Shown: piece after piece, positions 6,535 through 6,840 of the stretch
Position numbering within the stretch: position 1 is the stretch's first letter
How the letters are laid out: the number at the start of each line of letters is the position of its first letter
Virus record (IMG/VR): IMGVR_UViG_3300031949_000034
Location: 1-61,630 of that record
Direction: 5' to 3' (one strand)
DNA: 61,630 nucleotides
DNA from: a virus
Taxonomy: Duplodnaviria; Caudoviricetes
Notes under the pieces: generated by a model
The model's input: only the letters and a program-made list of their open reading frames with translations
Database searches by the model: none
What the model was told of the DNA's origin: nothing
Made by a program: the position numbers and the translations under genes

Positions 6535-6840
6535 TGTGACGCCAGGGCGTGAATACCACAGCGACAGCGCGCGTCTCATACCCCATGACTACAGGTCGTC
6601 CGAGAGGACGCACCAGTGGATCCCGGCAGGGCTTGCCGGGAGAAATCTTCTCCCTCGGGAGAGGACAACGGCTGGCAGAACCGGAAGCACGGTGTCGGCG
6701 GCGGGCAAGCCGCCGGTGCCCGACCGGATTGCTCCAGCAACCGGGGAAGGAACTTGCCGCATGGCGGTACCCAACCGGAGGGCCTCGGCGGGAAACCGAC
6801 CGGGGCCATTCGTTCCGCACTCCGAACCCGCACGCGAGAG
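6535..6840 (+). ncRNA. putative structured tracrRNA-like RNA with 3' anti-repeat
   Basis: Serial hairpins, one with a GAAA tetraloop on +; 6810-6838 matches the reverse complement of the repeat at 23/29 nt; ends are approximate. Confidence 0.65.

Follow-up and report, generated by a model that had tools for sequence, protein, structure and literature searches.

Does the hairpin-rich DNA in front of a CRISPR array in a soil virus encode a helper RNA for an RNA-guided protein and, if so, for which one? We addressed this question in a 61,630-bp IMG/VR soil-virus record (IMGVR_UViG_3300031949_000034, CheckV completeness 45%), analysed over its whole length and hereafter called the window, in which a long plus-strand RNA (6535-6840) ending in an anti-repeat, i.e., a partial reverse complement of the repeat, had been proposed from the sequence alone (the original prediction). 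We consider it probable that 6588-6966 (plus strand) is the scaffold, resembling a trans-activating CRISPR RNA (tracrRNA), of a type V-like CRISPR system that is carried by the virus and derived from TnpB; this scaffold would be omegaRNA-derived and Cas12n-like, has no effector gene alongside and would be supplied with its effector in trans. Homology to other viral loci, covarying helices and an anti-repeat co-evolving with its repeat carry this reading, and therefore argue for a real plus-strand tracrRNA-like scaffold rather than a decayed inverted repeat. The two elements at issue are:

6588-6803, plus strand: conserved scaffold, homologous to other loci (alignments A4 and A6), whose hairpins and blocks are listed separately below
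6967-7862, plus strand: CRISPR array with the 36-nt repeat CTCGCAGGCGAGTTCGGAACGCGGGACGAGCGCCAG, in 12 copies at 6967-7810, then a 3' half-repeat at about 7841-7862

The first 10 copies of the repeat are identical and the next two have 2 and 3 mismatches; 11 spacers measure 35-42 nt and the final one 30 nt.

The RNA region is shared with four other viral loci

Four other viral loci (G001, G003, L082 and L083) share the RNA region, which lies in each between a TnpB-like gene and an array. Two of them came from a Pfam search for the TNB domain in five sister records, with strong matches in G001 (140 kb) and G003 (136 kb); their TnpB-like open reading frames (ORFs), of 639 and 602 amino acids (aa), run up to the first CRISPR repeat and lie 24-27 kb upstream of their genes for a tyrosine recombinase, in a region outside the cover of the window. 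In both, the DNA that separates the TNB domain from the first repeat aligns with positions 6588-6966 of the window, and the homology starts at about 6586-6588, within the conserved protein end of the sister loci ("DYRS"). L082, which carries an in-frame stop, and L083 were recovered by a profile search of IMG/VR. An array directly downstream was found for all full-length family members in IMG/VR (4/4; L112 and L118, short matches to the N-terminus situated where contigs end, are left out).

In an nhmmer search with a profile of three loci, L082, which is outside the profile, was matched at an expect value (E) of 3.8e-7, and L083 gave only a 37-nt partial match that was not significant (E 4.9). 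The window itself scored E 2e-87, a match that is not independent, the three-sequence profile having been built with the window among its members; the independent evidence of homology is therefore that of the alignments (A2, A4 and A6).

The scaffold folds on the plus strand and its helices covary

The conserved scaffold comprises the following elements:

6589-6601/6606-6619, plus strand: hairpin H1, 94.6% paired
6621-6628/6634-6641, plus strand: hairpin H2, 90% paired, with 7/8 pairs changed on both sides
about 6645-6652/6657-6664, plus strand: hairpin H3, part of the conserved scaffold
6678-6685, plus strand: conserved scaffold block GAACCGGA
about 6680-6730, plus strand: H4 domain, followed by a variable region
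6781-6807, plus strand: pre-anti-repeat hairpin, the end of the conserved scaffold

All four hairpins named in the original prediction were present in the minimum free energy (MFE) structure of the plus strand of 6535-6845, whose MFE of -147.4 kcal/mol compared with -128.8 ± 5.4 in shuffled sequences (z -3.44; 0/100 as good), whereas the minus-strand fold had a z of -1.04, with 21/100 shuffles as good. Co-folding with the repeat had been proposed as a check; when repeat 1 and spacer 1 were added (6588-7037), z was -4.20 and the duplex of anti-repeat and repeat 1 was part of the MFE structure.

We then counted 44 pairs over the five loci, namely H1, H2, the anti-repeat:repeat duplex, a conserved-loop hairpin (see below) and a short helix. 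Paired cells amounted to 80.6% vs 64.5 ± 2.0 in shuffles (0/500), double changes affected 27 of the 44 pairs vs 13.2 in shuffles (0/500), and slid controls for the same structure were 33-45% paired. Covariation among homologs, another proposed check, was thus found both for the helices and for the anti-repeat:repeat duplex, contradicting a decayed inverted repeat.

The RNA had also been described as unusually long. From scaffold start to anti-repeat end it does measure about 251 nt, vs 170 nt for the RdCas12n tracrRNA (PMC12216341), but 6535-6587 is only a locus-specific leader, and homology begins at 6588. The suggested comparison with tracrRNA and omegaRNA models yielded, with Rfam at E ≤ 10 over 5500-9000, four chance-level matches, neither family type being among these.

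The anti-repeat co-evolves with the local repeat

The pairing partner of the repeat lies 128 nt upstream of repeat 1:

6804-6838, plus strand: anti-repeat, pairing with repeat positions 1-34 over 28 bp (cognate duplex -49.2 to -49.4 kcal/mol)

As claimed earlier, 6810-6838 is identical to the reverse complement of the repeat at 23/29 positions, and over the full repeat 6803-6838 matches at 25/36. First-order Markov versions of the array-masked window (100, searched on both strands) scored at most 22 with any 29-mer (in 5/100), and 23 was reached in 0/100. The cognate duplex of the window, the most stable among the five loci, was equalled by 0/300 shuffles, and the homologous site of G003 (-34.3 kcal/mol) by 1/300.

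Comparison of the loci extended this result. The repeats of the five loci are mutually only 11-23/36 identical, and the anti-repeat nevertheless stands at one common aligned place in 5/5 loci; the best-pairing site for the own repeat fell in aligned columns 321-375 in 4/5. Cognate duplexes are 27-29 bp long in all five (repeat spans 1-34, 1-34, 3-34, 1-34 and 2-33), and in the 5 x 5 matrix of scaffolds and repeats the diagonal mean was -43.2 vs -26.4 kcal/mol off the diagonal. Among positions paired in at least three loci, 24/31 showed a compensatory double change. The common aligned place, these compensatory changes and the 0/100 simulations therefore exclude both a chance match and a decayed inverted repeat copy. 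Judged from these comparisons, the anti-repeat is genuine and co-evolves with the local repeat. Two of the features by which type V tracrRNAs are recognized, an anti-repeat kept in evolution and a position adjacent to the array on the strand of array and effector, were found.

A second repeat-like site lies at 49443-49478 (26/36 to the reverse complement), inside the gene at 49065-49610 (minus strand); scores of at least 26 occurred in 2/100 simulations, which makes this site borderline.

The sister loci encode a TnpB-derived effector family with an altered nuclease site

The protein family next to the RNA in the sister loci was collected as a set of 47 proteins (E ≤ 2e-59, vs ≥ 6e-29 for ordinary TnpB). 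Its best models were PADLOC Cas12u4 (148-169 bits) plus one Cas12f model, and it matched NCBIfam guided_TnpB, Protein Data Bank (PDB) structures of TnpB and that of RdCas12n (9j09). The likeness to the guides of small type V effectors, initially supposed from the RNA, was thereby borne out at the protein level, the nearest relatives of the cognate protein being Cas12n/V-U4, Cas12f and TnpB.

The family does not have the canonical D-E-D triad of RuvC. RuvC-I has Glu in 39/47 and Asp in 8/47 proteins, RuvC-III has Asp in 43/47 and Glu in 4/47, and RuvC-II has Arg in 47/47, vs Glu in 4/4 outgroup TnpBs. This replacement of the RuvC-II Glu therefore suggests that the protein binds and silences its target DNA instead of cutting it; silencing without cleavage is the probable mode of action of the family as far as its residues tell.

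Family tails also bear on the RNA region itself. A translation of the form xSQ of an invariant nucleotide block (see below) occurs in 28/47 tails, and the motif just upstream reads, by loose peptide patterns, as an A-D-D-like peptide in 9/47 and a P-T-I-like one in 7/47; we infer that the two are different frames of one nucleotide motif. At least four proteins (P0029, P0030, P0037 and P0045) stop no more than 25 residues past the RuvC-III motif. No ORF with a coding pattern of G+C at third codon positions (GC3) lies in 6513-7874, and most indels that distinguish the loci have lengths not divisible by three (4/5, 4/6 and 3/4). Without a coding GC3 ORF, with non-triplet indels and with a tail motif in two frames, the RNA region therefore looks non-coding.

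A covariance model of the RNA (R1) gave only partial matches of 9-13 bits in G002, G004, G005 and G009, one of which pointed to an array in G004. In that genome (L071 10-1722), a different 570-aa protein with a weak TNB match (21.7-25.5 bits) is followed by a stretch of about 600 nt and then by an array of at least ten 36-nt repeats (about 2417-3123).

Conserved structure continues from the anti-repeat to the first repeat

The RNA had been predicted to end in the anti-repeat. This was not supported, as conserved covarying structure runs on from 6839 to repeat 1; the elements of this region, and both strands of a long-range helix that reaches into it, are:

6839-6966, plus strand: conserved post-anti-repeat region, belonging either to a 3' portion of the RNA or to the leader of the array
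6836-6852, plus strand: conserved post-anti-repeat block
6891-6914, plus strand: conserved-loop hairpin, with the loop GCCGACGA at 6899-6906 and 4/7 pairs changed on both sides
6666-6679, plus strand: 5' strand of a long-range helix containing CTGGC (RNAduplex -20.6 kcal/mol with 6944-6958)
6944-6958, plus strand: 3' strand of the long-range helix, the partner of 6666-6679

The loop GCCGACGA is identical in three loci, and its stem, as read by eye from the alignments, differs by two compensatory pairs between G001 and G003. The block CGCTCGCAAA at 6914-6923 is invariant across all five loci. Most of it, CTCGCAAACCG, is also present in G004, where it precedes the array of another TNB-like system, a weaker one, by about 50 nt, and the invariant block may therefore be a leader element instead of part of the tracrRNA. 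Two readings are thus left for 6839-6966, a 3' portion of the RNA and a leader of the array.

A short second duplex between CTGGC and the terminal GCCAG of the repeat had been proposed as well. CTGGC is indeed present at 6672-6676, but the duplex is not conserved: among three loci tested, a site at that column exists in the window only, G001 having no site of the CTGGC type and G003 having one elsewhere. Moreover, the repeat is already paired with the anti-repeat up to position 33-34 in all five loci (34 in 4/5), and CTGGC has a better partner in cis in the window, in the 14-bp long-range helix 6666-6679/6944-6958. An equivalent of this helix was found at the aligned place in G001 (-16.8 kcal/mol), and in the other three loci it was indistinguishable from cross-locus pairs, so that it is supported in 2/5 loci only.

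A predicted promoter precedes the module in a variable genomic spot

In a scan of 6300-8400, a single promoter-like site was found (0.1 expected) and no terminator-like site:

6499-6528, plus strand: sigma-70-like promoter site TTGACG-18-TATCTT, with the -35 element at 6499-6504 and the -10 element at 6523-6528
6510-6526, plus strand: operator-like tandem octamer, a 17-mer between the promoter hexamers
6535-6587, plus strand: predicted 5' leader with no homolog in related loci, its start placed from the promoter alone

A second copy of the 17-mer, differing at 3 positions, lies at 57294-57310 (100 shuffles gave 0 matches). Transcription probably runs from about 6535 through the scaffold into the array, as the promoter position suggests. 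The plus strand, favoured from the outset, is the strand of effector gene and array in all four homologous loci, in line with the folding z scores given above, and the plus-sense duplex is the more stable one in 4/5 loci.

The promoter-like site overlaps the stop codon (6510-6512) of a giant tyrosine recombinase gene (2451-6512, plus strand; 1353 aa), which lies upstream of the RNA and the array, matches Pfam Phage_integrase at residues 469-540 and has a conserved C-terminal region of about 800 aa that matches no known family. Besides the record of the window itself, 22 full-length relatives were found (L009-L050; proteins of 1261-1534 aa; viral contigs up to 140 kb), and the neighbourhood of the recombinase is syntenic among the fetched loci. 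From the recombinase to the next conserved gene the distance is 2-14 nt in four relatives and 211-1674 nt, of unrelated content, in seven; in the window it is 1362 nt, a space that holds promoter, RNA region and array, so that the module sits in a variable cargo spot. Direct repeats flanking it were limited to a single 8-mer, compatible with chance.

Further searches were negative: the window RNA had no match in the recombinase loci by blastn or nhmmer, the exact repeat core had 0 matches in the viral contig collection, and a related-locus search with P0001 alone found nothing. Arrays in related loci, missed by Tandem Repeats Finder (TRF), were detected with a k-mer chain detector instead. Near the recombinase, L049 (157-600) and L026 (15833-16128) have arrays of unrelated repeat types; in L026, the 3' end of the recombinase gene contains a repeat copy (about 14298-14328), and by eye the first spacer is similar to the neighbouring gene.

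Logan contigs spoke for the integrity of the module. Those from one DNA run of a soil metagenome (X1) bridged both module junctions without differences (5900-6635 and 7782-8500); X1 may be the source of the window itself and thus gives no independent support for the assembly, and several array bins had no Logan contig cover in this run, which is uninformative. X1 also held a variant form of 6712-6850 that differs by 8 substitutions and 4 indels and is covered to a similar depth, other sequences preceding the repeats at 7621 and 7700, and a 4568-nt contig that matches the window from exactly 6588 on and is unlike it before, the last letters before the junction holding an operator-like tandem octamer. 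Ten identical repeats, both junctions bridged and alternative spacers before the same repeats speak for a module that is intact and in use, and according to the contigs two or more forms that differ in their spacers probably co-exist, with another junction of promoter and scaffold exactly at 6588.

On these grounds we propose the following mechanism. The viral promoter at 6499-6528 would drive a single transcript running from the scaffold into the array; the anti-repeat (6804-6838) would pair with repeat 1 in cis and with the other repeats in trans, and the repeat:anti-repeat duplex would be processed. The resulting guide, composed of scaffold, 3' end of the repeat and spacer, would be loaded into a Cas12n-like protein of the family, supplied in trans, and DNA would be bound and not cut.

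A spacer of a sister array matches a gene of the virus lineage

In G003 (L081), spacer 5 matches its own genome at 34/35 positions (L013 9764-9798) and G001 at 24/26 (L009 9791-9816). Its target is the gene next to the recombinase, a homolog of window 1981-2430 (minus strand), whose product carries what we take to be a CX5R phosphatase-like motif. These arrays therefore act on the virus lineage itself, and the match would mean that a system altered at its nuclease site targets either its own genome or sibling viruses. The spacers of the window gave three chance-level matches in the phage database and a longest match of 16-18 nt in the fetched loci. The best match in the five sister genomes, 22/23 with a gap, had non-matching flanks and was judged not to be a protospacer.

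A proposed effector in trans and the alternative explanations

In the sister loci the effector adjoins the RNA, as in Cas12n/V-U4 systems, and in the window it does not: the RNA begins at 6588, where homology to the sister ORF tails begins, yet there is no ORF there. Pfam and PHROGs searches of the large ORFs of the window returned no Cas protein. Two window ORFs, of 907 and 628 aa, were not Cas12-like by eye. P0027 had no match in G002 or G006-G009.

Several points weigh against the proposed scaffold of an RNA-guided system with an effector in trans. No tblastn match to either effector type, no TNB domain at E ≤ 1 and no Cas9 were found in the 61.6-kb window, and two complete sister genomes, G002 (nothing) and G004 (a different weak-TNB protein), are without the effector family, so that the missing half of the window's genome need not carry an effector either. 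The 12 spacers of the window had no convincing target. The covariation sample consists of five loci, one alignment served both to derive and to test the structure, and in the vicinity of the anti-repeat two of the loci are misaligned by MAFFT. The minus-sense duplex of the window is marginally more stable than the plus-sense one; transcript, strand and ends are predictions from sequence. Loss of cutting, finally, is read from residues only, and rearranged RuvC sites exist (PMC10691335). By our own, unmeasured apportioning, the effector has somewhat less than an even chance of lying in the unsequenced part of the genome (about 55%), a distinctly smaller one of being supplied by the host or by a sibling virus in co-infection, and what remains, intermediate between the two, falls to there being no partner.

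The alternative that survives best, although we think it unlikely, is a hijack by guide RNA, in which the effector-less cassette would be carried in order to load an effector made by the host, by a prophage or by a competing sibling virus, and to redirect or saturate it. The absence of an effector from the window fits this explanation, as do the module's own promoter, whose operator-like element recurs at one other window site, the second promoter/operator-like junction at exactly 6588 in the co-occurring variant and the G003 spacer matching a conserved gene of the lineage, by which arrays act within that lineage. There are precedents in the viral guide RNAs named vsgRNAs (bioRxiv 10.64898/2026.06.01.729453) and in phage tracrRNA matching host repeats (PMC10910872). 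However, the unseen 55% of the genome may hold the effector, the window spacers have no target in the five sister genomes or the fetched loci, and the fit of the scaffold to a foreign effector is a supposition. Equally tentative is the idea that the cassette is a weapon between viruses, moving as a unit from 6588, which would program or soak up the RNA-guided protein of a relative or resident element and turn it on its owner.

A little less likely still is a relic, i.e., a non-working remainder of a lost or rearranged effector locus. It would explain why the window contains no effector gene and why no spacer targets were found, and the spot is a variable one, with unrelated DNA in 7/11 relatives. 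A decaying locus is difficult to reconcile, however, with the intactness of all conserved RNA elements, a duplex that is the most stable of the five loci, ten identical repeats, a promoter in front of the module and two co-existing variants with different spacers.

We regard as very improbable a Cas9-type tracrRNA on the minus strand, with a 5' anti-repeat and a 3' tail. The original prediction had cautioned that the minus strand might pair better, and this is correct for the window taken alone (minus-sense duplex -51.7 vs -49.2, or -50.0 vs -49.4 kcal/mol, i.e., 0.6-2.5 kcal/mol more stable); but the homologs lie downstream of the TnpB-like gene on the strand of that gene, the minus-strand fold is no better than shuffles, the plus sense pairs better in the other loci (4/5), and neither a Cas9 in the window nor an Rfam tracrRNA match in 5500-9000 was found. 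Just as improbable is a chance match or functionless decayed copy of the repeat, since, although the borderline 26/36 site inside a gene shows that such matches can arise, 23/29 occurred in 0/100 simulations and the anti-repeat keeps its aligned position in 5/5 loci with 24/31 compensatory changes.

Under the preferred reading of a tracrRNA-like scaffold whose effector would act in trans, the data provide a comparative, covariation-backed definition of the helper RNA for a viral CRISPR family that is little known, derives from TnpB and is altered at its nuclease site, and indicate that the RNA and array part can exist, with a predicted promoter, without an effector gene alongside. If the effector does come from elsewhere, phage-encoded guide RNAs would extend from Cas9 to TnpB/Cas12, and the locus would bear on the splitting of omegaRNA into independently mobile tracrRNA and CRISPR RNA (crRNA) modules; if the cassette is a weapon, it would stand beside the Cas9-subverting vsgRNAs of phages as their multi-guide counterpart in type V. 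In practical terms, the five scaffolds and their matched repeats outline how a single guide for a compact DNA-binding effector might be designed.

Comparison with known systems

Archaeal viruses carry mini-CRISPR arrays without an adjoining effector. Among phage precedents, a tracrRNA has been described beside a dead Cas9 or matching host repeats (PMC10910872), and the vsgRNAs directed at Cas9 are likewise guide RNAs carried by a virus without an adjoining effector (bioRxiv 10.64898/2026.06.01.729453). Unlike these, the window is of the type V/TnpB-like kind and carries a full scaffold plus a 12-repeat array, not a fused single-guide RNA (sgRNA) of about 90 nt, hijack being only a candidate role. 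The type II tracrRNA of Cas9 differs in strand, and neither a Cas9 nor an Rfam match accompanies the module.

Altered RuvC sites, arrays and a lack of adaptation genes are shared with Cas12m, Cas12k, V-U24/43/44 and TldR-like TnpB (PMC10691335); Cas12m is reported to be tracrRNA-free (PMC12721324). Cas12r of Thermus phages and Cas-delta, both tracrRNA-free, were set aside as analogues of the RNA, and the "MvCas12m" of a myxophage was not equated with the family, its RuvC residues being differently spaced and its triad canonical.

With the omegaRNA (also termed right-end element RNA, reRNA) of TnpB, the sister loci share an RNA that starts inside the 3' end of a tnpB-like ORF and a guide 3' of the scaffold, and the sister effector matches NCBIfam guided_TnpB. 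The difference is that guides come from a 12-repeat array and not from a single guide in one flank, and that the window has no tnpB. The TranC intermediates offer the related idea of an omegaRNA split into tracrRNA and crRNA (bioRxiv 10.64898/2026.03.27.714800).

The closest likeness is that to Cas12n, whose tracrRNA is encoded in the dispensable, unstructured C-terminal tail of the ORF with the array next to it (bioRxiv 10.64898/2026.03.27.714800) and, in RdCas12n, measures 170 nt and contains a 3-bp pseudoknot (PMC12216341). G001 and G003, whose ORFs reach the first repeat, have the same layout of gene tail, tracrRNA and array, and L082 and L083 have the RNA region between gene and array; the sister effector scores best on Cas12u4 and matches 9j09, and the scaffold is likewise long and multi-stemmed with the anti-repeat toward its 3' side. 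The family departs from Cas12n in its RuvC-II Arg (47/47), and the window in a scaffold of about 251 vs 170 nt to the anti-repeat end, in an anti-repeat that pairs with nearly the whole repeat and in a module that has its own promoter and no effector ORF. In the accessible literature we found no effector-less viral module of type V tracrRNA and array, and the V-U6 to V-U45 tables (PMC10691335) may already list the effector family. The kind of tracrRNA and the Cas12n layout are already known, whereas the effector-less viral module with its predicted promoter would be new.

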